A stretch of 64,000 bases of DNA from assembly GCA_964187785.1 (NCBI GenBank), contig OZ076409.1, positions 44,704,001-44,768,000 on the forward strand, read 5' to 3'. The notes under the pieces are model-generated. The model searched no databases. It had not been told where the DNA came from and worked only from the letters and a program-made list of their open reading frames with translations. How positions within the stretch are numbered: the stretch's first letter is position 1; every line of letters begins with the position of its first letter. Below, in pieces: positions 6,401-45,400 of this stretch. The position numbers were made by a program, and so were the translations under genes. This DNA is from Amphiscolops sp. MND2022 (taxonomy: Eukaryota).

Positions 6401-9400
6401 TAAGTGTGAGCTCTTGCTCAACGTGGTAACTAAGACTTGCAGCAAGTAGCACTGCCAGCAGTTCAAGTTTTGCTACAGAAAGCGTTTTCATTGGCGTACG
6501 CGAGGTTGAGCGAAAACAAAACTCACATTCGTGTGTGTTGCACCAGCTATCTTACCGTGAAGATAAGCAACGGCGCAAACATAGTTCTGCAGAGCTGTCA
6601 CCATGTAGTTCAATATCCTCTGGTATGCCTAAGAAGTAGGACTTCTGGATTGAAAACTACTCAAGTTGTAACGGCTGCTTGATCCCTTCAGTTGACCACA
6701 CTTTACGCCGCCCTGAATTCGGTGCTCGGCACTGCGGATCGTTACCGAACAATGCTTGCTTCTGAGATTAAAAGGACTGTATCTTGACTTGGTAGGATCC
6801 AATGATCCCGAATTGCTATTCTTCCTTGTCTCTTAGCACGCCCAACTCTTCACAAGTTGAGAGTAACTAACGGCTTAAACTTGGCCGGTGTGTTCGTGTT
6901 AGGTACCTCCATATGTGTGCCAAGTTTCATGGCTCTAGGGTTAACAGTTGTCGAGCAAATCCCGACTGGGGGGGTTTTTCGATTTTATGACGATTGACTT
7001 TTCTTCAAATTTTCATCGAAGTTTTTTAGGAGTTTAAGTTTTGTTTCTCAACCAGCATGTTCTGAATCAAGTTTCTTTGCCTGCTGATGACTGGCGCCAA
7101 CATTGCCGGCCCTGTTTTTCTCCCGAAAAACACTTTTATAGGAAAGGGGTGCCCGTTTCACTACTGGTCGTTTCAGTTTGTCATCAATAGTCGTTGTCTT
7201 TCTGAGACCTCTAGATTCATAGTTATCTTTGTCAGTTGCTTGATGTGTTCTTTCTCTGCTGCAGTGATTTTCTACCCCATAATACACTTCGCCGACCATA
7301 AGGTTGTTTTCGACAAGTTGACATAACACAAAATATATCCAAAAAACTGTTGTCTCGTTTGAAGTGAAAGTTTCCCCATCATCCCAATCTTCGTCATCAA
7401 CGTCCGACATTCATTGAGTTCAACCAATTCTTTTTCTCTTGAATCTTTAACAGGTATGATACAAAATTGCTTCAGTACATTTAACTCGACTTCCATAATT
7501 ACTTCAACATCCAAAGAATAGATTTCCAGATGAGTCGAAAATGTCTCCATACAGTTTCCCAAGATTTGCTCTGCTACAAATTTCCTCATCAAAGTTGACT
7601 GACCGCGGGGGAGATATGTCAAAGAGAGTTCGTTCTCTAATGGTTCCATACTCAAGCTTTCAATTTGGCGTTCGGAAGAGATTATTGAATCATCCATCAT
7701 CATCACCAATAAATAAAGAAAATTTCCAACATTACGGCAACTGGAGTTTTTTCTTTTGTGTTCAATGCTTTCTTTGCATCCAATAGGAGCAGATTTGTGT
7801 TGTGAACTCAGTCGCTGCGCTACATTTTGCTCTTTGCTTACAGACACGTCGTTTTTCGTAGCTACTTCCGAGTTTTCTCCAAATAACTGCAACGCCGTGG
7901 AATTTTGCTTTCGCCTCTGTTTGTAGAGCTTCACAGAGCTTCTCTCACAACAAAACTTCAATTTCTTTTCATCTAGGTTTCTATCCGGCTCCGATAGATC
8001 ATCAAAAACTTCCAATTTACCGAAAGACCCATGCCGAGTCCACATTGCCTTGAAAAGTGCAGCCGGCCCATTGCAAGACCCGTTGCTCCAACTTGTTGCT
8101 GGTACTTTCAAAGAACACATTTGCGTTCTTGTCACTGATACGTTGTCTGTCAAATCATATAGCCAAAATGTGTCATCTCGTGTTCCATTCCCACTCAACT
8201 GAGATCTTTCCTCCGTTCCATGAATCAGGTTCCAGTTATGTTCAATCTTCCAAATACTTCTCTTCGATTGCTTGCGGTGGCCGTTGCTCAATTGAGTTTC
8301 ATCAATGTCGTTAGCATGTGCCACTGCGTCCATTCCAGAGTTTCCATTACCAGTCCAAGGGTTCCATAGATTACTATGACTCGGGATAGTTTCATCTAAA
8401 AGACTTTCATTGCAGTCGAAATCCGTTTTCTTTCCAAAGGTTGCATTCACGATTTGTGTTTCAATTTTAGCATTGCCTTTCGCGGGTTTATCATGTTTCA
8501 TTGCAACGTGACATAGCTTTTGATACATGACTATTTCATTCAAGTCTTCTGGCAGTGTATATCGTTGCTCATTCACAAAGTCATAACTTTTGACAAATTC
8601 ATAACATTTGTTTCTTTCTTCAAGAAGTAGAGTAATGTCATAGAACACTGTCACTTGGAATAGTTTCCCCTGTCGCACGTCCTGTAGTACGGTGGAAACT
8701 TCTGCTGACCTGCCTTGCAGCAGTTCAAATTGCACGCGCGGTTCTTCCGAAGTTTCATTTTTCGATAATGCATGGGCTAAGCTTCGATGCTCTTGCATTG
8801 TTTCAGTCATTGTGTAATTGAAAGTCTCCTCTGTTTGCACTACCAATTGCTCACTCATGACCAAGTGAATCTCTTCTTCCAAAACTTGTTCTGTATCCAC
8901 GAGGAGGGTTTCTGATCGGAAGTCTTGCCAGCCATTGTCTTTAAAGAACGTTTCTGGCCAGTTCCACATCCATTCTGCGATTAGATTTTTCGAGGTTCCT
9001 TTGTTTGCATTGCTTTCAACATTTGTCATATTTGAAACTTCATGTGCTTCACGTTTGATAGTTTTGTCTTGCAACTTTCCATGGTTTGGACACTTGTCTG
9101 AACACTTTATCTGCTCAGGTTTCCATTTTTTCACTGTACACTTTCCTTTTGTTGTCCAGTCAAGAGTTTTGAGCAAAACCATTTCTTCTTGCTTGCCCAA
9201 AAGTTCGTCTTTTCTTTTCAGCGATTCATTGTGATCACTTGAACTTTGTTTGCTCGAAGTTTGCTCTGTTTGAGTTTGCTTCACAGTTCTTATCATTGAA
9301 CAATTTTCAACGCTTTTTTGGTACGAGCGCCAATGTGAGCCAACAATACTCTTTGAATCAGTTCGCCCAAAACAGGGTTCTTTGTTGCTTCTCTGGTGTG

Positions 9401-12400
9401 ACTCTTTGTTCGTCACTTCATTCATGTTGTTCCGAGAGTGAAGGCTTTGCCCACCCCGTTCAGCTCCTGTAGGAGGCTTCATTGAGGCCGAGGATGCCTT
9501 GAAGGTCCGATAACATTTCTGAGGGCCTTTACTTGGTTGCAATTGCTTTGTCACTTTCTGTGATTGTGTCAGTTTTAGCTGCATTTCATTTCGCGCTAAA
9601 TCCATGTCGTTTTTTAAGACTTGTTTGGCTCTAGCGGTTTCTTCTTCGAGTTTAGCAATTTCTAATTCTTCTGCGAGTATCCTCATGTCCATCTACTCTT
9701 GTTTCTTTCGGATCTCGGCTTTGCGTCTTGCTGCAGCTAACTGCTCATCAATTTCATCTTGTTTCTTCAATGCTTCCAATTCTAGAAGAAGTATTCGTTT
9801 TGCATTTGATGACTTAGAACTAGCTGTTGTTCTGTTGCTCTTTGAGGTTGCTTTGACTGACCCTTTGTTGCTTGGTTCGGGTAACACTTTCACATCACTG
9901 ATTGATTTAATCACATCAGAGGGGTTGGATGCTCCAACAACGCGTCGTTCCTCTTCAGTTACCCTGCTTGATTGTGCCAGTGATTTCAATTCACTAGCTA
10001 CTTCCAATGAGCAATTGCGTTTTGTCGGGTTGAAGCTACTTTGCTTGAGCTTCCTTGTGCAAGGGCATCTCATTGCCGCGTTTGTAGAGATTCCACTTGC
10101 CATTTGCCGAAATTTCGTTTTGTTTGTCTCGTCTTTTGGACCCTTCGACATTGTCTTTACATCAGGGAACCAATATCCCCAGTTGGCTTCTAATTCCGCA
10201 AAGAATTCTTCCCATTCAGACACACTTCGACTGAGCTGTCTTTGCTTTTCTTCATTTTTGAGGTCCAACATAAGATCTACGTTATGCAACATTGCTTGTT
10301 TGTTTTCGCGATATTCGAATACCCAATCATTCAATTTACCTTTGCAAAGACTAGCGCCTTGCTCGTCAAGCTTGTCATCCAAGTCTTTAATCAGAGTCCG
10401 TAGTCGTCCAATTTGGGTGGCCACAATGTCCACATAATAGCGCCACACGTACCAGTCGGAATCATTTTCCAAATCTCTTGATCTGAGGTCCATCAGTTCT
10501 TGACTCTGATTTGTGTTTCTTTGATCAAATACATTTGTCATTCGAGGATGTTGCACCTCGAGCATTTCTTTCTTTCTGGCTTTCATTTGTTCAGATTGCA
10601 GTTTTTGTTTAACTGAGGGCTTTCTGACTACACAATAGTTGCTTGACGACTTTGTCACTTTTCCCAAATTCCGCAATTTGATAGTTCTGAAGTGTCAACT
10701 GCTCAACCCAGTAATCAATCGCCAATTAACGAAGAATCAACCCAAATGCGCTACAGCTTTCCAAAAATCGGTCACTAATATCATCGGGCAGATGATCATT
10801 CGAGCGTTGACCGTTGAGCCTCCATATTTCCTTCAGCAAGAGACGAGTTTTTACCGTGTAGGGTATGATGAGGTCAATAGGGTCAAAGACCGCTGAGACT
10901 ACGCTGAGTGATTGATTTCTAACAATCTCGACAACTGATTCCGCGGCTAATTTACAGTGTATCAGGTTTGTGATCCCACTTGACTTTAAGAACATGGGAA
11001 GCGTCGCTTGACTCGTTAGAAATGTCTTTCACTGGTTGGACTGCGTTATTGTTTGTTGTTTTCAATTCGTTAGCGAACTCGTGAATGTTACTCACATATT
11101 TAGTTAAATTGAAGCCACCCAGTTTCAATATGGTAACAAGTTGCTTGCTCAAAATAAAAGCTTCACTTTCCGACTGTACAGAAATTAGGAGGTCGTCCAC
11201 ATAAAAGTTTTGCTGAACAGCGAGAGCAGCCTCTGGATGTTCAGTTCGTTATCGACCGCTGTCTTCAACAATGCAAAGTTCGCACATGTCGGCGAATCTT
11301 TTGCTCCGAAAACATGCCGTGTGTTGAAAAATTGACACCGGTTCGGTGGGGTTCCCCCTCCAAAAAAACCGCATAGATCGTTGGTCCTCCTCAGGTACAC
11401 CAACTTGATGGAACATTCCTTCTATGTCTGCTGATAGGGCAAAAATGTGTTGAATGAAGCGCAACAAAAAGTGCAGTAAGTTCTGAAGAAGATCAGGTCC
11501 GATACGCAACACATTGTTCAATGAATGACCGTGGAACATGGAAGCTCCATTCAACACCCAACACACTTTGCCCGGTTTATGAGGGTTTACCACCGGATGA
11601 TGCGGTAAGTACCACTCTCTTGGTGTTCGACAGTTTGGGACATGTTCTTCAACTGCAATGATGTACCCTTTCTCGAGATCATCACTTACAGTTTTAAAGT
11701 ATACCTGCTTGAGTTACAAAATTTTCGAGAGACGCTGTTCGAGCGACTCGAACTGTATCAGACTTGAGTAATGATGGTCAGGCAATTTAACGCTGTCATC
11801 AGTCCAGAGCATGCCAACCACGTACCTTGTACCATCATGCTTTGTTGTTGAATCAAGGATGCTAACAGTTCACTGATCCGCTTTCGAGCGCTTGTCGGAT
11901 TGAATGTAGGTTCCGAATGTTTCAGATTCGTCCATGATTGCACTTGGTCTGCCAAAAGAGAACCTTCTGTCTTCGCTCTCATGCACGTTGACACCAATGC
12001 TGATGTGGATGGAACTGGTCCACTGAGAACCAATCCAAATGGCAGCCGAACTGCGACCAGTGCATTGCGATCATCCTTCTCGATGTATTCAATTGGTCGA
12101 ATCGCTCCAAAATCGTCTTGCCCTAAGATGATTTGTACGCCAGAATAGCTCAAGATCATAGGTTTAATTGGTTCCAAATGAGGGAAATTTTGCTTCAAAG
12201 TCGCTAAGTCAATTCGATCAGAACCAACACTTTAGTCGTTTTCGACATAAGGTGATATGTCAATGGCGAAATCAGGGTTACTATCAGAAATAAAGAAATA
12301 ATACGAACTGCAACTTGTTCTGTGTCAACTGTCTCGCTGGAGCTGATGCCGTTGAGAATTATCTTGACAGGCGCTCCATTAAGAGAGAGAGATTTTCGCC

Positions 12401-15400
12401 TAGACTTTCATCTCCAAGCTGGATAACTACTGGTGCAATTGGTAAAAGACCTTTCAAATTTGCAACAGATGCGGCGCACGTTGATTGAGAAGTCTGTCCG
12501 TCTTGATTCGCCTCTTTCGTTTTCCTGGATGAACCGGTAGCTGTTGACGTTTCGCGCGGAAAAACTCGCTCCACTCCATGGAGCAGAGTGTTATGACTGC
12601 TGTTACAATCTTTGTGAGTACTTTTGTGTGGCTTGAAACACTTTCGGAAACCGTGATTCCCATTCAATCAGGAAAAACAAATTGATTACTCGCAGCTACA
12701 TGAGCTCTCTGAGTAGGCGTTTTCTGGTTGAAAACCGCGCAATTTCATATCGCATGGTTGCCTTTACACACAAGGCAAGGACTCGATGCCTTTTTCGGTT
12801 TCGTTTGTGGATACAAAGACTTTCGTTTTTGATTTGGATTCATCTGCGTTTGGTTTTTGAGCGGTGGATTGCATCCGTTCTTGCGCCACGCTTTGACGCT
12901 GAGCCATTCTTCGAAATTCAAAAGAGTCGGCTGAGAAGAGAATTTTCGAACTGTGTGAAGAGACCAAGGTTTTTTAATAATCGGAGGTAGCTGGCTGTCG
13001 GCCATGCTCAGAAGCGATGCGCTTCTGAGATATGCTTCGCAGTTCAAAGATTTTAATACGCCGACTAAACTCGTGATTGCCAGAGAATAACTAAATCTGT
13101 TGTCCGAGTTGTGTATTTTCAATGGTGGAAAAATGCTGAGTTTATCCAGATATGCAAACTTTGGAGACTACCGTTTGAGGCTGTCTCAAGTTTTTTACAT
13201 CATTACTAAGCGACGACATGTCAACACGAGATATGGTGTTCCAGTCGCTTCGGGAGCCGTGGTTGAATGGCTGAAAACAGTGGTGTTTTGTTGCGGGGAG
13301 ATGTTGCTGCTGGAAAGGATGCGGGATTGTAGAAATAAACAGAACTAAACGGGATTGAGTACATAGAAGGAGCACTTGTGGCATTCGTTCCAGATAGCGT
13401 GCTTACTGTTATAGTTGTTGTACCCACAGTTGTTACAACAGGTGCTGTGAAAGACGACTCAACTAAGTGTGTCGGAGCTTCATTTGAAACAACGCTGTTA
13501 GATTTATGTGTTTCAAGAGAATCTCTGAACGTCACAATCGGTCGATCTGAAAACGGCTTCAAATTTGGCATGACTGATACGGATGAATTCACAGGAACGA
13601 TGGCTGCATTGGAAAACCCAGAAGGCGCATTATCATTCAGCGCTTTTACATGATGATTAGAAAATACGAATGTTTCCGATGCACTCCGAACATCGGTGCT
13701 ATCTTTTGCGTCAGCGTTGTTCGGCGAAAACAAGGTAGTAGAGTTTCCAGCTGGTGGGTGATCAACGTCTAGAGTAGCTGAAGATCTATTCCTAAAACCA
13801 CTGAAGTTCTCGTTCGAAATTGAGGTCGCTAGTTTTTCGGTCGGTAACGGTATAGAGCCTGAAAAAGACGGCGTTTGGTTCTCGGTTGAACTATTGTTTA
13901 CCCAATTCCTAACTCATTCTTCATCGTTATCACTGTCAGTTCTTAGTACTTCCACAACTTCACTTCCACCAGCATTTGCAGCAGACCCTTCGTCTTCAAG
14001 TTCCATTTCATTTATTTTGGCCTCAACCAGTTTCTTACGATTTTTTCCAATCAATTCTTCCATCTCAAAGCGTTGTTTTTTCTCTGCCAACAAAAGGAGT
14101 GCTGCATTTTGTTTCTCTACTTCTTCTCTCCTCAACTTTGCTGCCAGAAGTTATTTTCTGCGAGAGCTAGAAGAAACTGACAAAGACTTTGTTTTACCAC
14201 ATGAGAAACTCAAGTGACTAGGACACTTCGACGACATATGGCTAGACAATTTTCCCACAGAGGCAACATCAGTACATTCAACGTCATCTAATGTTTCAAT
14301 GTAGTCACGGGCATTTCTTACTATTACGTCATTATCCACAGTTAGATCAAGCAACCACTTTTCAAGCTGTTCTTTAAATGTCTCAGGGTTATTCACTGTA
14401 TTGGGTAACAACAAGATCTCATCGTTCTTTGCCAATGCCTTTTCTACTGTCTCTTTAGAGTGTTCAATCAACTTCTCGACTTTCACGCGCCTATCTTTTT
14501 ACTGACTGCTTCTTCGACGTCAGCTTGATAGTTCTCCAACTCAAAAATCAACCCATCACGTTTGGCTAATAATCTGGTCATTTTAGTTTCAGTTGTCTTG
14601 TCCATCCAAGATCTTTATAGCGGACAAATACGAAAAAAAATAAAGTATAAAGGATGTTTTTTTCGTATTTGTCCGCACCAGAACTTGTGCTCTCGTTTCA
14701 GTTGTTTCGTTTGCCAAAGTTGAAAATTTGTCTTTTCGGGTTGCGTGTTGTACCGTCATCACAGAATGAAAATTCACAATGAAAGAATTTTTAGAGGAGT
14801 TTGAGTTGCAAATGTTTTCCGTTAAGGAATTGAGCTAAATTTTTAGAGTCTTGAAACAGAACTAATAGTTTTTCGGGATAATTAGAGAGATCCAAAAGTT
14901 TTTTGTCGGAACATTAATGAAATTTCGGACAACTGATTGAAGGGTTGAGTACCGGTCGGGAGATCCGTGGAAACTTCTTTTTGACTGCATTTCGCCCAGC
15001 TTCGGATCGGGTTCGGGTTGCTAGCTTAGTCCAGTCACCAGTGGGTCGCGGCACCAGAAAATGTGCTCGTCTTCACGGTTGAAGTCAAAACGGTTGTCTT
15101 CCAAGAAAGTTTTTATAAAAGAATACTGATGGAAAGTATTGTTAACTGTTTTACACAATGAAGGTCCTTTGTCAAAAGGAGTATGATGGCAAAACACTTT
15201 TACTATATATGAGTGGTAAACAAAAGCTGGTTTACGGAGTACTAAAGGTCAAACGTACTAGAATCGGGAGTACTGTACGGTACGAATTATGTAACCAAAG
15301 TCACGTGATACGGCGTACTACATTTTCGGTCGAGGTCAAAACTAATTAATTTCCTTTTAGGTCGTTGAGACTTTTGCATCAGCAACATGTTCATCTCCAG

Positions 15401-27400: not shown

Positions 27401-30400
27401 GATGACTCAGCAACATTATCCACAAGTGGGAAAATACAAATTAAGCGTAATAGATCAATAAAAAGCATACCTAGATGCCTAATTGCGCATATGCTAATTT
27501 AATACATCTGACGCGTTCGAACAAAGCACTTACATCAAGGAGTGATACTGCGTAGTTCACATCACTATTTTATATAATGCGTGATACAGTGAGAGTACAA
27601 GTATATTGGAGAGGGGTGTTAATGAAAGGTAATGTTAACACAGTTTGTTAAAAAAACTGTTTTAGTCTATGCTACTCAGAAGGTTTTGATCATCGTAATC
27701 ATTGCTGCTCCTCTGAGGATACCACATAGCTGTAGGGCTGTGAGAATGATCTGTAGGGATTAGGTTTAACATATTCTGCAAACTGTACGTATCTGTCATG
27801 CAATACGCAAGATTAGTAACAAACGAGGATGTTACCTGTACAGCACCGCCAAAAGGAAAGCACAAGTGAATATAAACAAGATTCATGAAGTGACGCTGCC
27901 ATACGCACATTGTCACAAGATCAGAGAAGAAAGAAACGAAAGGAGAAAATAGAAAATAAATGAACGCAGTTGACAACACAACATTGAAGAAATAAACTCA
28001 AACATTTTTACATGAATAAAATGTGACGTGGTCGTGATACATGCATCATCCATACATTTGTGCAGAATAAGCCAGTTTTATCTAGACATTAAACCCGCTT
28101 CTAGTATTTGACGTAGTTGTATTGAGTAGGTTAAATCGTGTGCTAAAAAGTACTTGCAATTTTATTACTCATTTCATAACCTATCATTTAGTCAATGTTG
28201 TTGCTACGACATTATCATATAGTAACATGTATTATCTTCAACGTTAGTGATACAATATCGGCATACTTTCACAAAAGCAATTATACTACATATAGTACTA
28301 GTATGTATTGAACAATGAATCATGTAACCATAGCAACGTACTATCACTGCACTCATACCATTAGACGCAAATTGCGCTACCAAACACAGGGTGCAAATTA
28401 ACACCATCACATAATGCAAAATGATTGGTTGATTAGGTCACGTGACCAACATCACCATACCAAACAGCAGGTGCCAACTGACGGCCATTAACTATTGCTA
28501 TACGACGACGTGCAGTTACCATCTACAACAACTTTGCAAAAACCTTCAGTTACAATATTTACCTGAAAATGGTCCTTCAATAATTCAATTAAACTTGAAA
28601 AACTTCCACATTTGTCTTTATGGTTAATACGAGATTTCAGACATCAAGATATATTCTAGTAGATATGAGCGGAATGGATAGAAGCAGCGACTCTGAGAGC
28701 GATAGTAGTGTACCCGAGATCCTTACGAGAGATCAAATAATCGAGTTCAAAAATGGTGATTTACTAAACTATCAGAATGATAATGATAGACATACAGTGG
28801 ACTTACGTTTTTCCGAAATGAATAAACAGATTAGCGACTTATCGAACCTCGTCCTAGCACTAACTGAAAAGATAGCCTCTAGCAATAGAGAAGGGAACGA
28901 ATTAAACACTGTCTCAATTGGACGCGAGACACATTCCGAAATGGCGACTGGAGTGGGATCAAGCAATGCCCAGACGAACCCATTGCGCTCATCAACATCA
29001 CACTACCCTCAGCCACCCGCACACCAGATTGACGACATAGTAACTGAAATCCACCACTTGAGAGATACCTTGACGGATTCTGTACATCATCCGAAGATTC
29101 TCCAGACCCAACTTCCTCTTTTCCTAGGGAACAGGGAGAAATATAACGAATTTGAACTTCTCCTACTCAATCATCTTCGACCACATCAACATGAACTGTC
29201 AGAAGAGCAGAAACTGACATACTTCCAGTGCTTGCTATGTGAGGATGCCATCTAGTTCTGGCAGTCATTCAAAATATTAAACCAAACAACGCTGGCACAA
29301 GTACTGCGTTACTTCAGAAAAGAGTATGCCAAAGACGATTTAAAAGAAGTGGCAAATACAAATTCGACCAGATGACCGACCGCTATGACCCTTCGGCAGA
29401 AACGTTTAATGATTTACTCAACAAAAACAAAAAAGAGGCCAAACAAGCATTTGGAGACAGATTGGGTGACATTACAGAGACGTTTCGGTTTGCAAAACTC
29501 CCCGTACAAAGGCAGAACGAATTAGCGATGGCAGGAAAGCACAGGGCTACAATGGAGGAAATTCGAACATTCGTACAACGAAGATGCCAAAATGCACAAC
29601 TCCTTCCAACTACCTCCAGTGCGCAACCATTCAACCAAATTAGTGCACCTCAGCCACACATTGCCACATCACAATCTTCCAATTCCCATCCCCAACAAAA
29701 CTGGGAAAACAAAAGAAGTTTGATGGACAATGCCGTCACTGCGGCATACACGGGCACAAATGGGCCAAATGTAGAAAACGACTTCGAGAAGAAAGTTAAA
29801 ACAATTCCACGAACCCGAACTCGCGAACTCGCGAACTGCAGCCCAGCCCAACCCAACAAACGAACAGAAATCCAAATACAACCCCAAATTGGTGCGCCAA
29901 ACTTGCGGAAAGGTGGGACACCCAGCCCGAGAGTGTTGCTACAGGAACACGACTGCGTCCGCATACCGTGGCGTCCCGTATAATAAACAGTCAACGGAGG
30001 AAAACAAGCAGTTCTGAAGTGACTTCAAATCGACCAACAAAAGGGTCTACAATACCATTGAGCTGTCCCACACAACACACGCAGAAGATAACGATACCGA
30101 AGAAACCAAAAGACATGATGACGAGGAAGATCCAAAAAATTCTAAAACCACGTCATCTTCCTCAATCAAACGAAAGTGCCCGCCCAAAACAACAACTACC
30201 CACTTCTACACCAACTCGACGGAAGACTTCAAACCACACGGGGTGGTAGTCCCGTGCCTCAACTTACACTAAGGAGACTACAAACTTCGTCATTACGAGA
30301 CATTCGACTGATAACTGCACCACTAAACCAAAAGAACGCAACCGACAACCCGAAGCCAACAACATGAAAACGTCATTTCCGAGCAATGACTTGAGCGACG

Positions 30401-33400
30401 AAACTAACGAAACCAATTAGCACTCACCTACAAAACCAAGCAACTCACCGAAGAAGACAAATAATGAAATCCGCCAGTTGAGCGCTACCCTGCAACTCAA
30501 CAAGAAATACAGGATGTCGTACGTACCACTCCAAAGCTGCTAGTTGAAAAATTCTGGCCTCCTTGACACTGGGGCAATTCAAAGTGCATTATCGGAAGCG
30601 GAACTTCGACGCATCCTAATAACTCATCCAGCTGCCCTTCTCCAAGAACTCCCCGCCCCGGAGTTTAAAGTTCAAATAGCCAACGGCAACATCGTGCCAG
30701 TGCGAAAAAAAGTGTTACTAAGTTTCTTCATTGGCTGCAAAATCTTCGAAGAAACATACATGCTGACCCCGACAATGGGAAACATACTCATTGGAATGTC
30801 ATTCTTCAGAAATAACTCCGTTACTCTAGACCTGGCCAGCAACATCGTCAAATTCCCGGACATAACCCTCCGATCAGTCAACATGATATTCAAGTACAAG
30901 TTGCTTGAATTGAAAACCACAATGACGACAGTAATCCAACCCAACCAACAAGTGTTCGTGCCAGTGGTGATTAAGCGTGACCTCGGAGACATCACTGGCA
31001 CTGTCAAAGGATTACTCGCGTTTGAGAGACGATCACACCTACTGGTCTCTCCGGCTCTCAGCGAAACTCGGGAGGGTCAGACCTACGTCCAAGTCACAAA
31101 CCCACTGGACTACCAAGTCACCGTGAATGTGGGTACGCCAATAGCGTCGTTCCAAATCATGACACACAAACAAGCCAGCAATTTGCAGCCGATGACCAAT
31201 CATCAACTCAATTTGATCTCACAACACCCAGAGGAAGCCACGGCAGTCTTGAATCAAGTTTTCCAGGATCCAATTGTAAAAACAGACTGACGATGGTACC
31301 CCACCTCTCAGACATGCAATGATCCATCAAAACTCAACAAGATTGAAAGACGAATCTATGATAAAATCGTCAAACTTAGGGGAGAGGAAAAGTTGGTTCC
31401 AACAGAGAGCGAGGAACAACGACAGGAATTTCTAGCAAACTTTCGGTGGGAACAATCAATACTGAACCTTCACGAGAAGCAGACAATCGAGGATTTATTG
31501 GGCAAGTACCATGACATCTTCGCTAGACACAGACTGGACATAGGAATCAACACCGAGTTCAAGATATAAAGTTGACTCCGAAGCACGACGAAACAGTGTA
31601 TGCTCAACCGACCGACGAACTTGAAAGATTATTTACTGGTTGAAATGGCGTTGATGCAGGAGTAGGGTATAATCACCACATTATCGTACAGCAAGTACTC
31701 CTCACCCTTATTCGCTCAACGCAAATCAAACGGGAAGCTCAGAATCTTTGTCGACCTCAGAAGATCTAACCATTTATTGAAGAATGATTACAACCAACAC
31801 AACCACCCAGTGACAACGATGGCCGATGCAGCACAACACATGGCTGGAAAACGATACTTTTGCAAATTGGACTGTTCACAAGCGTACCACTGCCTGCAGA
31901 TGGTCAGTCCAATCACTTGCATTCAATTTTGAAAGCAGAACCTTCGCCTTCCTCAGTTTAGCCCAAGGATTGAACCGGTCTCTGTCCGCCTTCAACAGTA
32001 CAGTTCGAGAGTACTTGGACCCCTTGGTGACGGTAGACAAATGCGCCCAATATGTTGACGATATCGGCATTGCAGCCAACACAGTCGAACTTGTCAACAA
32101 CGTTGAAGCAGTATTTAAAAAAATTAGACAGGCATTCTGAAGTTGTCAATGACGAAGTGTGCGGTCGATCACCCCGAGATCGAATTTCTGGGAAGAAGCA
32201 TTACCACCAAGGAGATCGCGCCAATCGAGGAAAAAATCGAAAAGTTTTTGAGGAACATCAAGTTACCGACGTCGGTGAAGTCACTACAACGGTATAATGG
32301 ATTTGTGCTGTTTTACCGCAGGTACATTCCGAGATTAGCTGGAAAACTGGTTCCTCTATACAAGTTGTTTCAGAAAAACGTCAGGTACGAACTCACCTAA
32401 ATATACAAAGATGCAATATTTGACATCAACGAGAACCGAACCTTGCCAATGCTGCAAAAATATCCTTACGACTGCCACTTCCTGACAAACAATTGGTGAC
32501 CATGTGCGATGCCTGTGAACATGCAGCTGGGTATGTCCTACCCATAGAGGACTATACAGACTCCAATGTTGGGCCGATGAAGTCATACGCCAGTAGCTTT
32601 CGGATCGCAGAGGTTTACCGATGGCCAGATGTCACTCACGATGAACGCGAAGGAGTTCCTGGCTATGAACTTTGCGTTTGATGAATTCGCACATATCTTG
32701 TGGGGTGTGAAGAAACCGACGATTGTCATGACCGACAACAAGGCCCTCACACGATTTTTCCAATCGAAGAGAATACCGCCCAAGCTGTGGAATTACTGCG
32801 ACCAGGCTCTCCAATTCGACTTCGTCCTGGCTCATGTATCTGGAGTCGAGCCCCGGCGGCGGAATACTTGTCCAGAATCGACATCAACCCTCAGGACAGG
32901 ATCCACCTCAAATTGCACGATGAGATATCTGTGTTCAAAGTTGAGATCGACCTCGCATCGAAAACGCCCAAACAAGATGATGACGAAGAAGAATGCATAC
33001 CCGACGAGACGAACGTGCCTGATGAAACGATATCACCAAACCCAACAATGCAGTCACTCCTGGCGATGTTCCCTCAATGGTGTCACGAAGACGAAGAGCA
33101 GTACCGTTGACGCATTGACGACATCAAGACCCAGGTGCAACTGTTTGTGACACCCTCTGACCCAACTCTCTTCTTCACCCGATTCTACCAACGGAACCAG
33201 GTTCATATGGTAAATCAGGTATGCCCTTCGGGTGTTTCAAAAATTGTTAGGGCTCAAGGCTTGAACAGTGAAAAGCAACGATTGATAAGGATCCTTGCTA
33301 AAGAAGAAACCCCATCCAGTCAAGTGAACTTTTCCAGTACGTTCTTTCAAAAACATTACACAAACCGTGAAAGGCTCGAAGTTGTAAACAACGTGCTGTA

Positions 33401-36400
33401 TAGTCAATTCTTTGACAACGTAGGAAACTTAGCTTACCGTCAAATCGTAGTCACTCCAGAAACTACGGAAGCCATAATCTGGACACTGCATAGCGACCCC
33501 ATGCAGGTACAACCTGGCGCTTCGAAAAATGCTAGGTGAAATTAGGAGAAGGTACTACGCCTAGAACTTAGCTGAAAAGGTACAGGAGTTTGTGAACAAT
33601 TGCCAAGACTGTATAAATGCGAAACCTGTATAAACTAGCACAGTTACAACACCATTTGAACCAATCTATGACCCCTGCAACGGTGCCAAAGACGTCCTGG
33701 AAATAGACTTAGTTGGTGAGCTACCGCAATCTAATGGGTACTCACACATTCTAATTGTCTGCGATAACTTCTCACGATATCTGTTTGCTGTTCCGATCCG
33801 GAAACCGGATACCAAATCTATAGTTGAAGCACTGTTAGACATATTCACGAAACATGCATATGTACCAAAGCATACCATTACCGATAAAGGCTCTGCCTTT
33901 ACTTCACCAGTCATCGAAGAACTGATGAGTACAGATGGGATTAAAGTATCTCATGCGACTGTCAAACACGCCCAAACAATTGGGATGATCGAGCAATCGC
34001 ATCAAAAGCTGAAACAAATCTGAAAAATAAACGTTGGGACCGGTACGTCAACCTCATCGTTATGGTTCACAACACGAGGTACCATCAAACTCTGAAATGT
34101 TCCCTGACTGAAGTCCTTCATTGCCGAGTACCCTACAATCCACTAGATCTCAAATTAGTCAACCCTCTAAGTTCGTCGAGGAACGCCACTGACACACAGT
34201 CACCAATGGACAACCTGAACGCTAAATTTAAAGAAACCTACACAAACATAATCCGAGCATTCCACAAGTACAAAGCGTGCTACGACCGGAAAGCGCAAGC
34301 ATCACCACTGAAAGTTAACGACTTTGCATCTTTTAAAGCCAGAAATCAGTACCCAATTGGAAAAACTACCTTTCTATTCCTTCAAGTGGGAAGGCCCCTA
34401 CAAGCTAGTTAAAGTTTTGTCACACTCTAAGAACATCGTTCTAAAAATAGGGACCTTCAAGACACAGTGTGTACACAGAATGAGGCTCCGCCCAATTGTA
34501 CCTTACGATCCAATTGAAGACTTAACAGACGACGCGAATCGTCATTACAGTGACCCTGATGCTATTGACGACCAGACATTATTCAATGATAACCTATCTG
34601 AATTCGAACGACCGACACCGATTGAAATCACAAATGAAATTGAAATCAACGAAACCGCAACTATAGACTCTGAACATGGAACGATTTATTATGAACGCAA
34701 GCAGGTCCGTGAGGTTCCATCTCCACCGAACTTTTCACCTGAAAACATCCGAACAGAAAACACACAACACACTGAATACGAGATTCCATCTGATACAGTA
34801 GCAACACCTCCGCTGGTTACTGAGAGCGAACAAAACGCCCTACTGAATGACGATGCGACGTCGACTACATCATCAACCGAAACGCCCGTACCTATAACAC
34901 ATAACAATACCACGCGATACAGCCTCAGAGAAGCACCCATCCCTAGAACATATAATAATCTTCTGGTTCATGAATTGCAAGCAAAACCTGCTCTCCTGAA
35001 ATTCATGGAACGAAAATCCACTAGTCAATAGAAAGTAAAAATTACATGCAATTATTTAGACATGACCCATACAACAACATGTACCCAACATACGAACATA
35101 AAATTAACTACCAGAGCGAGCTTGAATGAAAACTTTCCAAGGACGACTGATACTCACTGTCATACACACTCCGGATTACCGGCAGAGTAACGCTTTACTC
35201 TCTACCGAGACAGTTGACCGGAAAATAAATGCATACAACGCTGCTACCACTCAAAACATCACTACAGCAGTAATCTATAAGTACAAGCAATCAACATGTA
35301 AGCAATCAACATCACTAATTCAAGCAATTCATGTAAAATCGTAAGTGAAACCGACAAAAAGGGATTGTTCTGCGATTCCGAATGTAACGGACACACGCGT
35401 AAACATTCTACTTAATACTGATCAAAGAACACCCCGTGTTAAAGTAACAAGCCGGGACCGGCCCAAGTCGGCGCCATATCCAAGGCTCAAAAATAGCAAA
35501 AAGACTTCCAAGTGTCAAGTATTCGTTTACAGTAGTCGAAACTCGAAAATTTTTCGAAAATTTTTTTTTTGAAAAAATTACATACTAAAAAAATGGACCG
35601 AGTGGCGCGCCGGGGCTCGCTACCGCGAGCCCCTGGCGCGCTAACGTCTCACAATGCCGAAAAACTGAAAAGGGGGACCCTTTGAGGTTTTTCAACATCC
35701 ATTCTGTCGCAAAACATGAAAAAATTGAAGAAAAAAATTTTTTTATTTTCGGGAGAAAATCTCACAATGCCGAAAAAAACTGAAAGGAGGAACCCTTTGG
35801 GATTTTCCAACATCCATTCTGTCGCAAAACATCAAAAAAAATGCAGGGGGGACCCTTTGCGGAAAAAAAATTTCGAAAAAAAAATCCGAAAAAAATGTCT
35901 CGCAGTGCCGAAAAAAAATGAAAGGGGGGACTCTTTGGTCTCGCCCGGTATGATATGTTACGCGGAAAAACAGGTAAATTCATTTTGGTCCAGTTCGCTA
36001 GGCCAAATGGTGCTATTTGACACCATAATATTTTGTAGAACTTTTAAGAACTATTTTGGTCAGTTCGTGTGGATTGAAAAAAAAAAAAAAAAAAGAGTCA
36101 CTATAATAGTCGCGTTTCACTTCATGAAGCGCCGACTAAAAAACGAACTAAGCTACCCAGTTAAAGCTACATCAATCACACCTAAACCCCACCCACAGGC
36201 CTCACCATTCATCGTGTTGGCTGGGTGGGTGCGTCGTCAAAAATCGGGCTTGTGTGGTTGGCAGCGTCACAATGGGACGAAGCTTGCTGCTTGGGAAACC
36301 AGCGGCAAGTGGAGTCTGAGTTAGTTTTGTATAGAGATTTTGTGACGACAAACTCTTTTTCAAAAACCTGAACCTAAAATCAAGAGAAGAAACGACAGTA

Positions 36401-39400
36401 ACATGCAGTCGTCACACCCACTCGACTCTTAAGTCGTGAACGCCTTGTCCTTCCCGGTGATTCGTAGGCTTCGCCTCGTGCCAGAAAGAACACAGTAGAA
36501 ATCAAACACGCTCCAATGCAAACTACATACATGAAGTGAAATCCGAAGGATGGTCAATACCGCCCCTCACCTAACAAATAAATGTTAATCCATGGAAATG
36601 GGGTAACCCATCCCCAAGGACTGACAACTAAAAAGGACACACATCACGTATGATGCCGTCTGAGGACACACATCAACGAAGAATCTACCTATGAAATAAG
36701 TAGAACATGTAAAACAACTAAACCAAAACTACATGCATATGCTGACAAAACAAAACCAAGAAAACTAACTTATGTAAATTGATAAGTACTCATGAAACAT
36801 GTAAGCCACCCAGTTGAAATGCATTACATACAACTACACAGGGTGCCAAAAGAACCACTAATCAACATGAAAACATGCACAAACTCAAAATCAACACTGA
36901 AGTAAAGTACAAATGAATATTTAAGTCATGACGAGAAACAACAAAAAAACAATATATAGACATGTATCAGCATAAAGTCCATCAACAAGGTTGCCTTTCA
37001 GAAGAGTCTAGTGCAAAACGTTTCTGCCGACTCCCCGACGCTCCAGGAACGTAATCGTCCTTTGAATCATTCACATTAGCAAGACTCAATTTCTTGGATT
37101 GGCCAGGTTTCCCATCAGTTCTTCTGTTCCCCTTCTTTCCTCTGGAACTGCCTCCGTTACCACGCGCGCATCGTGATGAAATAGATACAGCACCACTGAC
37201 TCTTGTCAAAGACTGCACCGAACCTGTTTAAAAATGACAAATCGACTTCTGACTGAAGACAAGGCAGTTTAACTCCGAGCTTCCTTGGTAGTTTGCTACT
37301 TGTCGGGCTACTGAATCCACGATTCCCGCTACTCACAGGGCTGGTAATTACGGCCTCAATTACGTCCAATTGAGGTCAAATATTAGATCGGTAGTCGTCA
37401 GCCACCGGTGCCCCAGGCTTTACTACTTCGTTAGATTCGCAGGGATATTCGCAGGATGAAATTACATCGCACCAAAGTTTCGCTCAATCCATGCTTGAGC
37501 AGTTAGTCCCAAGGACACGAGCGATCCTCATCAGTCAAACGGGCCGTCCCCGTGTCAGTCCTTTCGCAGGTTCCAAGTAGACATTTCAACGAGCGACGAG
37601 TATGGCCATAGTAGTGCCCTTTTAGCCAGCTGCGTACAACATGCAAACTAGAACGAAGGGCATCAGCACTCATTGCCGTCTCTCCCACGTCTTCACAATC
37701 TAAAGCATCAGTACTGACAACACACACTCTGCACACTGGGTCGAACACCTCTCGCAACTGTGAAAAGCGACCCCAAGATGGGTACGATAACCATAGTGAA
37801 ATAACGTCATCGATCCCAATACCCGGGTCCCAGTCTGGCGCTTCCGGAACATTTGTGTAACTTCTCGGTTTTGCTGTTGGATCAGTCCACCGTCGTCAGT
37901 TTCCAGTATCCCGTAAAAGGTCAATACGGTACACGTCTCAACCAAGGAGTCTACCCGCCGATCGTCCGAACCACTTTGAATTAACACGGGGTCAAATGGA
38001 GTCAGACTGAAATACGTAATCCAATCCTGCCGGAATTCGGTGACTAATTCTTGACACATGCCAGCCAAAAGCTTCTGAACGGCTCGGTAAAAGTAAGGCA
38101 GCTGATCAGACACGTCGAATCGAAAATACTGTCCGAAATGAACCTTCTACAGCTCCTGGTTGGCTGGCTCCAGTTCACCACTCAGTGGTTGTAACAAGGC
38201 AGAAGTATAGTAGCTGGCAGGGATAGTACTAGCTGGGTAAACCAGTACGGCCATGGAAAGTCCGCACAAACGAGGACAAGCTTCCACAACTAAAAACAAA
38301 CAAACAAGCGGTAAATTCGAAACGTACTGGAATCATTCACCGCACACCGTAGCAGTACTATTACCACTGACACCCCCCCACACACACACGAACTCAACAA
38401 GATCCACTATAAGATATTCACGAAAAACACAACCACACACTGCGATCAAGGATGAACCGAAAAACGGCAAATCGCGGGCGCACCAAGGCGTCATCGAACA
38501 CCTGAGTTTCGATGGGGGCAGTCACTTGTAACCCGGAAGTTACTGATGGCCGATTACATCCGAAATAAACTGACAGGACACTCCACTGCTCAAAGATTTC
38601 CGCACAAATTGTTGCAAGTCGCTGTACACCCGATTCTCCGTACTGCACATACTGAAACGTTAAGAGACACATTCCAAAGCGTCAAGCCGGAATTAAAAAA
38701 TCGTTAGAAACATGAAATAGAGCACCTACACTACAACGACAATCCGCTATCCGCCGCTACGACTAACAGCACTTATGATGCATAATGCAATGAGCTCTAG
38801 ACCGGTTAACATGAAACTAAGGTTGTCATTACTCACACGTCGCAACTGAGGCAACCGGTCCAGCGCAGGATCTCTGATGACAGGCAAGAGCCGGTAGCAC
38901 AGGTAATCCAAAATTCCAATACGCTCGAGCCCCGCGAAACTGCCAATGAAAGCCTTTTGGAGATTGTCGTATATCGTCCCCACGTGAACAACCCCAGCAC
39001 AATGGGGCTCCGAGGTGATGTAATTAATGCCACGGCATGACCAACTCGGCTGTGCCCCTCTATCGCTACAGCCTGCAACCGGCCCACTTCGCACAAACAC
39101 AACAAAACTGGTACCAGAGTTTGAATGAAATGGGACTCCCAGCGGTCACCTCCGTCCACCACCGTTAAGACGATCGAGTCCACTGACTGCTCATTGACGA
39201 CATGGCATTCACAACGCCAGTACTGGCCATCCCGGCGGATTAGTAGGTAAAACGGACTGCGGGCTTTGACCAACTCATCTAATTGCTTATGGAAAAAAGG
39301 GTACAATCTATATAGGACTAAACTCTGAAACACACACGCCACAACCCATTACACGAAGGAAACCTAAAAACGTTTGACTTAGAAACAACAAAACTATCCC

Positions 39401-42400
39401 TCAGAACACGAAAAACAACCCTCCCCCCACAAAAACAAAATAAAAATACTATATAAACATACAAACATGAACCCATACACGCCAGTAACTTTCAATTCCC
39501 ACTATAGAATAGAAGCAAAACTCCAATTACCACAAAAAACACAAATTAGAACTCACCTGACATTGAGGGTACGTCAACGATCGCGTCTCAAGCTGCACCT
39601 CCGACTGCATGCAATTACTCCACGACTCCAAGCAACGAATCACACCTTCAAAGCGCACATGATTGGTAAAATTCACAACAAACTCACTGAGCTACAAGCA
39701 CAAGAATTGAGACCCAATAGGTGTTAACTGGGGACGGGATTGACTCGGCTGCTCTTCCTCCTCAATAGCGATCCTCTCTCAACTGAAAGGCTCAAGGTCA
39801 ATTTCAAGTAAAGCGGGGGTTCTGACATCCGCTCTTTCCGTATCCTTCGGTCTTAGACTGAACTCAGAGGCCGGCACGACTCGTGAAGAAGCGGCTGCTG
39901 CGTCATTATCCTGTATTTTGCTCTAACCGGGTATATTCGGCCCTTTTCCAGTGATTCCATAGGGACGATAAACTCGTCCAGCAATGCTTAAGTCTACTCG
40001 ACACAACAAGCAACGTGCATATCCATCCACCACCCGCTTGTGACGCGGGAAACCAACAAACGTCCCAACGACTCCAGAGACGAAATAAGACGGTTTGAAG
40101 ATTTTAGCCTTCCGACGTCGAACTATACCACAAACAAAACATAGCAGATCACAAACCGAGACAACACATGCTACCGGAGACCCTAAACACTTATTACAGA
40201 AACCCAAGTTTATAAAACTGAAACAAATGTTATGCTTTGTTCTGTCCAACTAAAACCTTACTACTAAAACTCCCTCATTTGATCTTTTGAGTTCTTACCA
40301 GGTTCAGCCGAAATGCCGCCACCACCAGCTACAGACGCAGTTGAACATTGCACACCAAAAGCTGATGGGACCACTGATGATGCATCCTTCTCAAACGCCT
40401 CCCGGCTCAATGCCACTGACGTTGATGGACTTGGGGGCGACTGCATTGCAACAGTTGACGACAAAACTGCACCTTGACCTCCAGAACCGCCGACTGGTCC
40501 AAGGGGCAAACAAGTCGCAACAATTTCCCCCAGAAGTGAAGTCAACGTTGCCATGAACTCGTTCACTAACGGAGCACCCACTGTACCGAGACGATCCAGC
40601 CGAGCGTCAACGGTGGCTTTCAAGAGACCGCCCATCTCCTTGGAGAGATAAGGGATAGCCGCCTCCAGATCACAGACTGACACAAGACGGTCAGACGAAT
40701 CCCCTAGAACAAGTACAACGCGTGAGAACATGGAAACTCTAAGCCAATGTACGGCCGGAAGATGATGCTGCGCTACACGCAACCTCCATACCTACACGTA
40801 GACAAGCCAACCAAGCACAGTCAGACAGTTCCAGAAAACAAAAAACAAGGATTAACATGCTTGCTTCGCTGAGATGCTTGCTCCCTCAAATTTGGGATAG
40901 AACTCGACGACGTAGAAGGTGCTTCACCGCGACGCCCAATCAATTGCTGAAGAGCGGTGACGATCTCTTCCAGAGTCAAACTTACTGCAATAAAAGTTCA
41001 ACGCAATAACTTACGATAAATTACCCCAGTGAGCATGTGTTTTTCCTGGGAAGTACAACAGAATAGCACGGAACAGCACTACATCCGTACTACACGTACA
41101 ACAAATTTTGTGGAGCGCTCAAAAACCAAACCGGGACAACGCCAGAAGAAAAAAAAACAAAAAAAGCCCAAGAAAGGTAATCGAGGAGCAGAAAACATTC
41201 ATGATACTACTTACGGAATTCGTCAGTTAATACGGCTTCCATAAAGGAATTGAATGTATCTGAGTTGACTGAGGGAAAACGGCCAGCGAATCGACAACAA
41301 GTGGGACTCACACCCACTTCAGCAGTTCCGCCGTCAGCCTCACTGACGACCTCCGCTTCTTCAGACGACATTACTTCCCCTTCGTCTACTAAACCGCCCT
41401 CCACAGATACCACAGTAGCGGCGACTTCCTCATCAGACAAAGCGATTGCCGACATCAATAACAACTACAATTTCTGAAAATATTGAGAAGAACGGGACAA
41501 TATTGTGAAGAACGGAATTTACCAAGGTTCGACGACACTTGCAAGGATCTGGTGAACTGATCACCTCCATTATCTAGGCAAAAGAAGCGCCTATCTACCG
41601 AAAACGAATTTCAAGTTCTAGAAATCGCATTCAATCAATGGTACATCCTCAAAAGACAACTCCTGTCTGAAGAAAAATTGAAAAACGCCAATTTTCGTCT
41701 TGTTCCATTTACTTATGCCTAGCATCCACCTGACCATGAAGCCTTCTACTTGGTATGCCGAGTTTGCCCAAGGAAAACCGACAATAATCGCCAATGATAA
41801 CAAACTATCAAATCACAAATCTAAACTGTAACTGTCAACGAGTAATTTCCCGCATATAACACGGTAGTTATTGTTTCCACACCCAACTTAGAATTGCCAA
41901 AACAGCACATTCGATGCCAAGAATTAACTGTTTCCGGTTCACTCACCTTTACTACCTCTACTCAAATCAGTATTAAAGCGCACGATTGGATGACGTGGCT
42001 ACTGACGTCACGACTATATGAACTATACTCTCTCACGACTGTACTTGCCGACTGAACGAACAACTTCTCGGGTTCCCTTAGAGATTAATACGCCAAATCA
42101 TATTTACTTCTTCACGCTTGTTAACAACTATTAAGTTCATTTTACTAAAACTGCCAACACTCCAACACCAATCTCAATTCTTTCGCTTCTCGTTCCCCGC
42201 GCATTCCTCTTTCTTTTCCAGAGGGGGAGTGTCATGCAATACGCATGATTACTAACAAACGACGATGTTACCTGTACAGCACCGCCAAATGGAAAACACA
42301 ATTGAAAATAAACAAGATTTCTGAAGTGACGGTGCCACACGACCAACGTCACAAGATCAGAGAAGAAAGGAACGAAAGGAGAAAATAGTGTAAAAAATGA

Positions 42401-45400
42401 ACGCAGTTGACCACACAACATTGAAGAAATAAACTCAAACTTTTATACATGAATATCTTGTGACGTGGCCGTGCTACATGCATCATCCATACATTTGAGC
42501 AGAATAAACCATTTTATCTAGACATTAAACCTTCTTCTAGTTTTTGACGTATTTGTATTCAGTACGTTGAATCGTGTGCTAAAAAGTACTTGCAATTTTA
42601 TTACTCATTCCATAACCTATCATATAGTCGATGTTGGTGCTACGACGTCATCATATAGTAACATGTATTATCTTCAACGTTAGTGATACAATATCGGCAT
42701 ACTTTCACAAAAGCAATTATACTACATATAGTACTAGTATGTATTGAACAATGAATCATGTAACCATAGCAACGTACTATCACTGCACTCATACCATTAG
42801 ACGCAAATTGCGCTACCAAACACAAGGTGCTAATTAACACCATCATATAATGCAATATGATTGGTTGATGAGGGCACGTGACCAACATCACCATACCAAA
42901 CAGCAGGTGCCAACTGACGGCCATTAACAATTGCTATACGACGACGTGCAGTTACCATCTACATCAACTTTGCAATAACCTTCAGTAACAATATATACCT
43001 AAAAATCGTCCTTCAATAATTCAAATAAACTTAAAAAACCTCCAACTTTGTCTTTATGGTTAACACGAGATCTCAGACAGCAAGAAATAATCTAGTAGAT
43101 ATTAGCAGAATGGATAGAAACAGCGACTCTGAGAGCGATAGTAGTGTACCCGAGATCCTTACGAGAGATCAAATAAACGAGTTCAATAATGGTGATTTAC
43201 TAAACTATCAGAATGGTAATGATAGACATGCAGTGGACTTACGTTTTTCCGAAATGAATAAACAGGTTACCGCTTTAACGAACCTCGTCCTAGCACTAAT
43301 TGAAAAGATATCCTCTAGCAATAGAGAAGGGAACGAATTAAACACTGTCTCAATTGACACGAGACACGTTCCGACAGTATCCCTCGTGTGCAGTGTCAAT
43401 GAGTGGTCCACTGAATTATAAAGCAAGCAGGTTGAGGGAAACTTACTGCATCGGATAAATTTCACCGCATGTTACGAAAAAGTATGTTTATTTAAAGCCT
43501 ACCCTCTTCACTAACTGCTCTGAATTTTTTCTATCAAATTTATTGACATTTCTAATTGCAGAAAGCATTTTCCAAGTCCGGAAGATGTCATTGTTGGTTC
43601 GTTTATCGTACTGTGTATGACAGTTTCCTCAATAATTGTTCCTAAACATATTCAAACAGACTTTCCGCTTTTTTAGCCTTAGGCGGTCCTCCACTTTTTG
43701 TTCAAGTTGAACTTTTATAAAACCGAATAATTGGCGTTTGTCCGGTTAGATTTTGGCAAGAAGGCGATACAAATTTCCTTAAAAAACTGTCAGTTTCAAA
43801 TCTGTATACGAGCTTTTAGTTGATATTGTTCTGTTAGTTTCTTTTTCGAACAATTGATGTTCGAAGGTGTTCAATTTTTTTTCTGAAAGCGTCTTCTAGC
43901 AATATAAGAAAAACTTAGCAATACCAAGGACCCTCTTGTTGCCTAATCAATTTTGCTGGCGCATAAAAATAATAGTCCTAGTGATCGTTCGAGACGAGAC
44001 TTCAATTCGACAAGATTTATTTTGGCCAAACCGAATAATTGGCTCCGTCTCCAAGTATCATGCCCGTCGTAGATAACTTGAAGAACAAGGAACATACCGA
44101 TAAAGCCAAATTCCGATTTCTTAAGAACACGGATCAAAATAGCTTCAGGAAAACAGAATGAAAATTATATATTACATTGCAAATGAGCCGTTCATTTTCT
44201 GTTTAGAGAGAACTTCATTTGATATTATTGTCACCAAAGAGGGTACTTTCGATGCTGATCTAGAGTCCTCAACCTCTGATGTCTATAACAGTTATTGCAA
44301 TGAAATCAAAACGGAAGTTAGTAAGCTGATTTGAAACATTCCAAATAAACTTTTTTGGTAAGTATAGTTTTTGCTTGAGTGAATCGTGTTAACGTTAAAA
44401 AGTGCACAAGTTTGAAAAAAATTAAACTCTGAAACGGAAATTGGTATGACTTTGGAACTTCTAAAAAATGCGCCTTAAAAAATCCATCCGTGTTCTGTAG
44501 ACACCCACTCCCTAGTTTTTCATCGTTGCAAATTTCTCTGAATCGCTAACCAAAGTATGAATTGAGTTTTTTGGGAGTGCAATTCAAACGGATCTTCAAA
44601 ATAGGCCATTTAAAAATGGATGGGTAAATCCTTATTTTTATGATCCATCCATACAGTTTCTTATTACACTGGCATGTGCACACTTGGAAAGTTCACCTAT
44701 TGCTACACTAGGGTACAAAAAATCCACTCGATTTCGCTAACAAAAAAATCAAAATTTCCCCAAAATACCATGTGAAATAACTTTTTAAATTTTCATTCGA
44801 TTTCACAAAAACTACCGTTTTAATTCTCATCAAAATCTGAAACTTCTCCACGTGAGACTTTTTTGTCAAATACATGTCATAAGAAAACGTTTACTGTAAA
44901 ACTTTTTTGTCTATGAAATTAGCTGTTTTTAGCTTTTTGGTACCATAGTGTATAACCAATGACTCACGGATTCAGTATGATTAGGATACAATTTTATCTT
45001 AATCATACTGAATCCTTGATTCCTGAATCCTTATTAATAAGCAAATCTTTGACAATTGTCAATTTTTTAAAACGTTTTCTGGCCTAATGAAAGTTGAATG
45101 AATAGCTACACGAGATTTGGAGATTTCCATTTAAACTCTTTCCAAAATTTTGATAATGTCAAAAGTAATAAAAGTGTTTTTTGTTTCAGGTGACAAATTT
45201 TTTCACGAGCCAACAGATCACCGTTTTGAGCATTGAGTGCAAAGAATTCATTGGAGGCAGCATTACTTCTAAGCTAGGGGTAAATTTTGAAGTGGAGGAT
45301 GGAGAGAACAGAGACACCGTAACAGCAGACAGGAAGCTGCAAGTTTATGACGCACTATCTACTGAAGCAGCTAGGACCACTCTGGAAATGACAGAGTTTC

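Follow-up and report, generated by a model that had tools for sequence, protein, structure and literature searches.

The window analysed here, a 64,000-nucleotide stretch comprising positions 44704001-44768000 of contig C1 of a 1.07-Gb assembly of Amphiscolops sp. MND2022, includes a Ty3/Gypsy retrotransposon that carries a gene with predicted introns in the antisense orientation between pol and the 3′ long terminal repeat (LTR). This gene is a constant part of the element and is under purifying selection; it probably originated from a hAT-like transposase and does not amount to an active hAT element. The preliminary description of this DNA had missed that the gene occurs throughout a clade, in three lineages, with swapping of modules and, on the simplest reading, a loss of introns. 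Sibling elements were searched for in the same genome, and the candidate numbers given below are first-look figures rather than copy numbers.

Constancy and selection of the antisense gene

A search of the genome at the DNA level with nucleotides 37000-41500 of the window produced 45 matches (40 scored of 213 candidates). When 20 such loci were fetched at 20 kb, pol was found on the expected side and on the opposite strand in 15, the remaining five being rearranged or including only fragments of the element. A search with exon 7 produced 129 matches from 128 scored of 899 candidates. Sampling independent of the antisense gene (the cargo) was achieved by an integrase search, in which 150 of 25,954 candidates were scored and the 10 kb downstream were fetched for one row in seven, beginning at row 8 (20 loci), and for 20 rows from the distant tail. 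Cargo exons were present at the same place, in antisense, in 20/20 and 16/20 of these loci, respectively, i.e. in 36 of the 40 integrase-picked loci, and in sense orientation in none of the 40; the four loci without cargo had a deletion or interruption after pol. Where the alignment in these 40 loci reached an exon end, the acceptor dinucleotide AG was present in 103 of 110 cases and the donor dinucleotide GT in 120 of 124. At shifted control positions these dinucleotides were near zero, save where a conserved codon provides those letters. Sibling comparisons had been proposed in the preliminary description for both the cargo and its introns, and their outcome was as expected there: siblings carry the gene, always antisense, and splice sites and phases are kept across them. 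The median ratio of nonsynonymous to synonymous substitution rates (dN/dS) of the cargo among 11 copies was 0.13, with measurable dS in 8 of 55 pairs; in the other pairs dS was saturated and dN was 0.23-0.64. For pol the ratio was 0.08 in 31 pairs.

The copy in the window is defective and has received a further, secondary insertion, features that would fit a simple nested hAT insertion or a passive passenger of one copy. Against this stand the presence of the gene in those 36 of 40 siblings, the purifying selection, the conserved splice sites, and the existence of three lineages whose reverse transcriptases (RTs) are about 60% identical. Furthermore, no 12-bp terminal inverted repeats (TIRs) with an 8-bp target-site duplication (TSD) surround the gene, with zero candidates in the window, in agreement with the preliminary description, and zero in one intact sibling. 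We regard the probability of a nested insertion or passenger as negligible, and rejected it because of the sibling constancy, the selection, and the conservation of splice sites.

Structure of the gene

The antisense gene consists of seven coding exons and six introns. Six exons had been proposed, but the segment 40984-40299 contains two exons and one intron. The proposed junctions 41215/40984, 40299/40122, and 39557/39324 and the donor at 38837 were recovered; the acceptor at 38725 was not, the homologous acceptor being at 38651. All exons lie on the minus strand. Exon 1 (41215..41455) codes for an acidic N-terminus and starts at an ATG, at 41455, that is homologous to that of the siblings and has a probable 5′ untranslated region acceptor directly upstream. 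Exon 2 (40865..40984) has in this copy a putative GC donor, assigned from phase and sibling length, and exon 3 (40299..40703) is fast-evolving and of low complexity. Exon 4 (39557..40122) encodes a CxxC-x16-H-x5-H BED-like finger and the helices that follow it, exon 5 (38837..39324) predicted RNase-H-like strands with a degenerate first acid, exon 6 (38441..38651) includes an invariant Trp, and exon 7 (36982..38289) encodes the remaining helical insertion domain, the C-terminal hAT-like region, and a basic tail. The peptides quoted in the preliminary description are all present in the sequence. In the window the gene is a pseudogene: exons 4, 5 (one frame break), and 7 are interrupted by frame breaks or stops, as is gag-pol; exon 6 is open.

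In a young subfamily, with LTR pairs 98.8-99.7% identical, there are seven GT-AG exons with phases 1,1,1,0,0,1 and a single frame of about 1130 codons. All seven exons are free of stops in two of the three young copies tabulated, and the third has one stop. A conserved GCCACGTCA-TCCAA box (41986..41999, minus strand), a candidate antisense promoter, was present in 13 of the 21 loci scanned of type I, the lineage of the window, at about 550 nt upstream of the start codon. Standard annotation misses the gene because it yields nothing in Pfam or profile searches and is concealed by repeat-masking.

Three lineages and intron history

Type II was found through a weak match adjoining one locus (E 0.002-0.007 among 685 open reading frames, ORFs), and in the genome 150 of 6,906 candidates were scored. 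Pol was upstream on the other strand in all 10 loci fetched, and nine of the 10 had LTR pairs 96-99.9% identical and the same primer-binding site. The core of the type II gene is a single 870-927-codon frame, with small exons before it, and in profile-profile comparison it aligned in the same order with exons 4-5 (E 2.4e-9) and exons 6-7 (E 1.6e-4) of type I. Type III, found by a representative protein search (best 150 of 766 matches), is 25-38% identical to type II and occurs in the genome at high number (104 scored of 8,479 candidates). Ten more loci, eight of type III and two intronless, were all located between long direct repeats, with the gene always antisense; RT was found in eight of them and integrase alone in one more. 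The RTs of the three lineages are, as stated, about 60% identical, and the divergence of the finger exon between lineages is several times that of RT. Trees of RT and of the finger exon, rooted only at the midpoint, both split type I from types II and III with full support, the RT tree omitting 4 of 31 rows that had no long match, the intended outgroup among them.

Two introns are common to types I and III, one located six codons before a conserved L(Y/F)P and the other a phase-1 intron after 'DL', while the middle intron of type III is at a different place from that of type I. The simplest reading is that the two shared introns are ancestral and were lost in type II. With two introns common to distant lineages and one lineage that would have lost them, the clade constitutes a natural experiment on intron gain and loss in a reverse-transcribed genome.

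Proteins P0050, P0058, P0061, and P0239 are family members from short contigs. The two that were tested had best matches in this genome of only about 50% and 46% (about 46-53% identity overall), which makes it likely that the family exists in other genomes and assemblies too. Equal-scoring copies were observed at regular spacing on contig C3 near 56.94-56.99 Mb (about 22 kb) and on contig C10 near 2.57-2.60 Mb (about 13.6 kb); they represent either whole elements arrayed in tandem or repeats of the assembly. A sense-strand open frame of 235-270 codons is located just before or at the 3′ LTR in 9 of 10 type II copies (L199:2654-3358 and equivalents), and the one tested had no Pfam match.

Modularity and a conserved non-coding block

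Cargo and pol distances were correlated with a Spearman coefficient of only 0.45 (Mantel p 0.049). In one recombinant copy the LTR and gag-pol are 93-96% identical to one subfamily and exons 4-7 are 90-95% identical to another, and a second recombinant combines the pol of one type with the cargo of another. Recombinant elements are located at L047-L048 and L061-L062. A non-coding block (36219..36682 in the window, no strand assigned; the 1.4 kb that follow pol in siblings) separates pol from the 3′ end of the gene. It is kept across type I subfamilies and is 79-93% identical between subfamilies in which pol is only 60-76% identical. From its conservation, a suggested reading is that it may be a cis element or a recombination hub. 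The block had no match in Rfam and its folding signal was inconsistent.

Relationship to hAT transposases and proposed function

The preliminary description derived the gene from a hAT transposase, and this interpretation is supported: the best structural match to the predicted structure of a natural homologous ORF, from a type II relative, is Hermes. The match (PDB 4d1q, 2bw3, 8edg) covers some 400 residues, beginning in the catalytic domain, continuing across the insertion domain, and reaching the C-terminus, with 10-11% identity. As in Hermes, the model includes an RNase-H-like catalytic domain, a large helical insertion, and a C-terminal region. The antisense product is predicted to have a whole hAT scaffold together with a BED-like finger. 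The finger motif is conserved and aligns weakly to that of one resident hAT (E 0.029), the structural matches lying outside the finger; zf-BED had no Pfam match in it.

The catalytic and motif residues of Hermes are D180, D248, R318, W319, and E572 (PMC6027215, in excerpt), and their equivalents were placed by motif analogy, not by residue-level superposition. So placed, the set present in active hATs was not found. D occupies the first-Asp column in 1 of 65 rows, and no lineage has a conserved acidic residue where the first strand ends; at the RW position neither R nor W is present in the aligned rows; the third-acid column is D/E in 12 of 67, and the helix expected to hold this acid is predicted as a loop. 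By this analogy the product has likely lost the hAT cutting residues and catalysis. The replacement of DES by RRD had previously been taken as a sign of dead catalysis, and the loss of the first Asp agrees with it, but type I keeps an acid at the second position. The same genome includes open hAT frames of 580-640 codons with intact DDE and RW (L122, L124, L318-L320), none of them detectably close to the cargo.

We consider it very probable that elements of three lineages constantly carry the gene under selection and that it encodes a hAT scaffold with a BED-like finger. An intron-bearing ancestral hAT gene would have been inserted in antisense in the 3′ internal region and retained after losing its TIRs and active site. 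The gene would have a separate promoter, immediately internal to the polypurine tract, that drives an antisense transcript, which is then spliced; its introns would survive retrotransposition because the genomic RNA carries them as antisense and they are copied intact. There is about an even chance that the protein, which combines an acidic N-terminus and a finger with a scaffold that multimerises and a basic tail, attaches to the DNA of the element and either brings in chromatin factors or keeps them away. A "DNA-binding protein adopted by the retrotransposon", in the words of the preliminary description, is what we also infer. For the account as a whole, in which a nuclear DNA-binding accessory protein of hAT fold, with catalysis lost, keeps its own element transcribed or unsilenced, the balance tips slightly in favor. 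A bolder version, that a Gypsy clade domesticated a whole hAT transposase as a spliced antisense, sequence-specific anti-silencing or trans-activating factor, module-swapped and spread across RTs 60% identical and more than one host genome, and that this factor drove mass amplification, is tentative and falls somewhat short of an even chance.

Several points weigh against this account. The fold was modelled for a type II relative and not for the lineage of the window, whose exon 7 alone did not fold (pLDDT, the predicted local distance difference test score, 37.6). No hAT family was found in Pfam at E<=1 (24 and 13 proteins) or at E<=0.1 (45 proteins), neither Dimer_Tnp_hAT nor any other hAT profile appearing in these scans; no hAT matched among PDB sequences by sequence; and against 10 hAT ORFs of the same genome the best E was 0.029, in the finger only. 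With sequence profiles blank, the hAT assignment rests on the fold. The dN/dS of the cargo could be obtained from only eight pairs, and a recombinant had its finger-to-tail part exchanged while its LTR and gag-pol stayed of another subfamily, which argues against tight co-specificity of protein and LTR sequence. The conserved non-coding block adjoining the gene would be an alternative binding target. Finally, the second catalytic position is D/E in 13 of 14 type I rows, being acidic in type I only, and a further conserved acidic residue follows the third position at a distance of two to four columns (12/12 rows in type I, 27/28 in type II). These acids, together with the complete fold, would be expected if the protein were still an enzyme, a nuclease or strand transferase with relocated acidic residues. 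We deem such an activity very improbable, since the first-strand Asp and RW are missing and the third-acid helix is a predicted loop, no TIRs were found, and the retained acids differ between lineages.

A protein of the same origin could instead act on the DNA intermediate. It would bind cDNA ends or target DNA and, in the manner of retroviral accessory proteins or chromodomains, aid the integration complex in nuclear import, tethering, or the choice of a target. Scaffolds of hATs bind transposon ends and multimerise (PMC6027215, in excerpt), the entire scaffold and not the finger alone has been retained along with a basic tail, and the same idea has been put forward for plant antisense ORFs (PMC7264820). 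We consider it unlikely nevertheless: the protein would come from a separate antisense transcript and not from the Gag-Pol polyprotein, so that packaging is not automatic, and fast divergence and swapping, against an integrase near 90% identical, are a poor fit for an integrase partner.

The gene could also be a self-limiting or competitive device. Its protein would repress the element itself or competing elements, or would poison active hAT transposases as a dead subunit, and antisense transcription would in itself dampen the element. Dead transposase derivatives frequently act as repressors, which speaks for such a role, and active-looking hAT ORFs are present in this genome. CENP-B homologues take part in retrotransposon surveillance (PMC5418596, in excerpt), and regulation by antisense RNA has been discussed (PMC7264820). 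Carriers of the gene, however, rank with the most strongly amplified young elements of this genome, with 96-100% identity between paired LTRs and first-look candidates in the thousands, and the protein is too diverged from resident hATs for detection by profiles, which makes heteromer poisoning unlikely. A repressive role is accordingly quite improbable in our judgment.

Comparison with known systems

Antisense ORFs of LTR retrotransposons have been known for 25 years with unknown origin and function; for those at the 3′ end of plant and fungal Gypsy elements the origin is mostly unknown and similarity to other transposable elements is lacking, and a search for spliced antisense transcripts has been urged (PMC7264820). 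Like the plant Ty3/Gypsy ORFs (maize Grande gene23, rice RIRE2, Retand TRP28/PF04195) and that of fungal Boty, which are antisense between pol and the 3′ LTR in most copies (PMC7264820; PMC11963269, in excerpt), the gene described here agrees in position and constancy with an antisense 3′ accessory ORF. Maize Grande was shown to have its own upstream promoter and a nuclear protein, and DNA binding was predicted for TRP28 (PMC7264820; PMC11963269, in excerpt). Unlike the plant ORFs, which have no established origin, this gene has a product of about 1100 amino acids, six introns, and a predicted hAT fold; the product had no Pfam match to PF04195, and the word intron does not occur in PMC11963269. 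Bdelloid rotifer LTR ORF3s (DEDDy exonuclease, GDSL esterase) are likewise captured non-env genes shared between retroelement types, but they are enzymatic, not dead, and the words transposase and intron have no occurrences in the same source (PMC5408684, in excerpt). The anti-silencing proteins VANC (VANDAL/MuDR) and the plant mobile domain proteins PMD/MAIN (Gypsy, MULE) are also transposon-borne accessory proteins of chromatin type, swapped between host and elements (PMC5418596, PMC13547354, both in excerpt). They differ in fold and origin, VANC being carried by DNA transposons, and anti-silencing is for the present gene a proposal by analogy.

With hAT transposases such as Hermes the product shares the predicted fold of about 400 residues and an N-terminal CxxC/H/H finger. 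Unlike them, it apparently lacks the first Asp and RW, has no TIRs or 8-bp TSD, includes extra acidic N-terminal exons and a basic tail, is only 10-11% identical, and moves by reverse transcription within a Gypsy element. Host-domesticated hAT genes of the ZBED, SLEEPER, and ZMYM types have turned the scaffold into a DNA-binding regulator, often with catalysis lost and introns gained; these are single-copy host genes, whereas the domesticating host here would be a retrotransposon clade. HBZ of HTLV-1 is spliced. HBZ and APH-2 are antisense-encoded nuclear regulators of an LTR retroelement (PMC11963269, in excerpt), to which our gene would be comparable if its product is nuclear; they are, however, small bZIP proteins whose expression is driven from the 3′ LTR, and neither in sequence nor in fold are they related to the product described here.

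No Gypsy element with an antisense gene derived from a hAT was described in the literature searched. By analogy, the gene may act in the way of a VANC-type factor or of the antisense accessory ORFs of plants; its origin and architecture appear to be new. It would provide an LTR antisense ORF with an identifiable origin in a different transposon class, a case of one transposon domesticating the enzyme of another as hosts do, and a specific candidate, open to testing, for a DNA-binding regulator encoded by a retrotransposon.

The Gypsy element and other features of the window

The element had been described as a Gypsy element with LTRs bounded by GTATC and a pol ending at 35031, and this description was confirmed. 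The GTATC TSDs (27789..27793 and 43377..43381) abut the 5′ LTR (27794..28941) and the 3′ LTR (42230..43376), respectively, which have TG...CA ends and are 92.7% identical across 1147 nt. The primer-binding site (28942..28953) is a degenerate version of a 12-mer common to siblings of all three lineages, and the polypurine tract (42219..42229) immediately precedes the 3′ LTR. These features, all on the plus strand, together with a TSD length in the range of 4-6 bp and the order of pol domains, agree with Ty3/Gypsy. Gag (28578..30140, plus strand) is broken and 49% identical to a sibling gag that includes a CCHC knuckle. Pol (30124..35031, plus strand), also broken, encodes protease, RT, RNase H, and integrase and is colinear with an intact sibling pol, with a 67-78% match. 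The order in the latter, protease-RT-RNase H-integrase in Pfam, identifies the element as Ty3/Gypsy. A dispersed-repeat secondary insertion of about 650 bp (approximate ends 35440..36100, no strand assigned) is absent from siblings. The gag frame begins within the LTR (ORF 28599-29255), the N-terminal peptide being identical in both LTRs (28599-28941 and 43035-43376), and runs through the primer-binding site in all lineages examined, siblings of types I and II included.

Strand skew (AT/GC) is +0.19/-0.16 in the cargo region, +0.20/-0.13 in pol, and about 0 in the flanks. The values of cargo and pol are similar, as the preliminary description had noted for A/C skew, but the skew peaks in the introns of the antisense gene (+0.39/-0.32), and part of the cargo skew is therefore antisense-intron composition.

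A second LTR element is located at 4130-15388 on the minus strand, with repeats 86.5% identical and pol motifs that we take to be BEL/Pao-like. It includes in its middle an unexplained 806-codon frame (7275-9692) followed by one of 333 codons (9696-10694).

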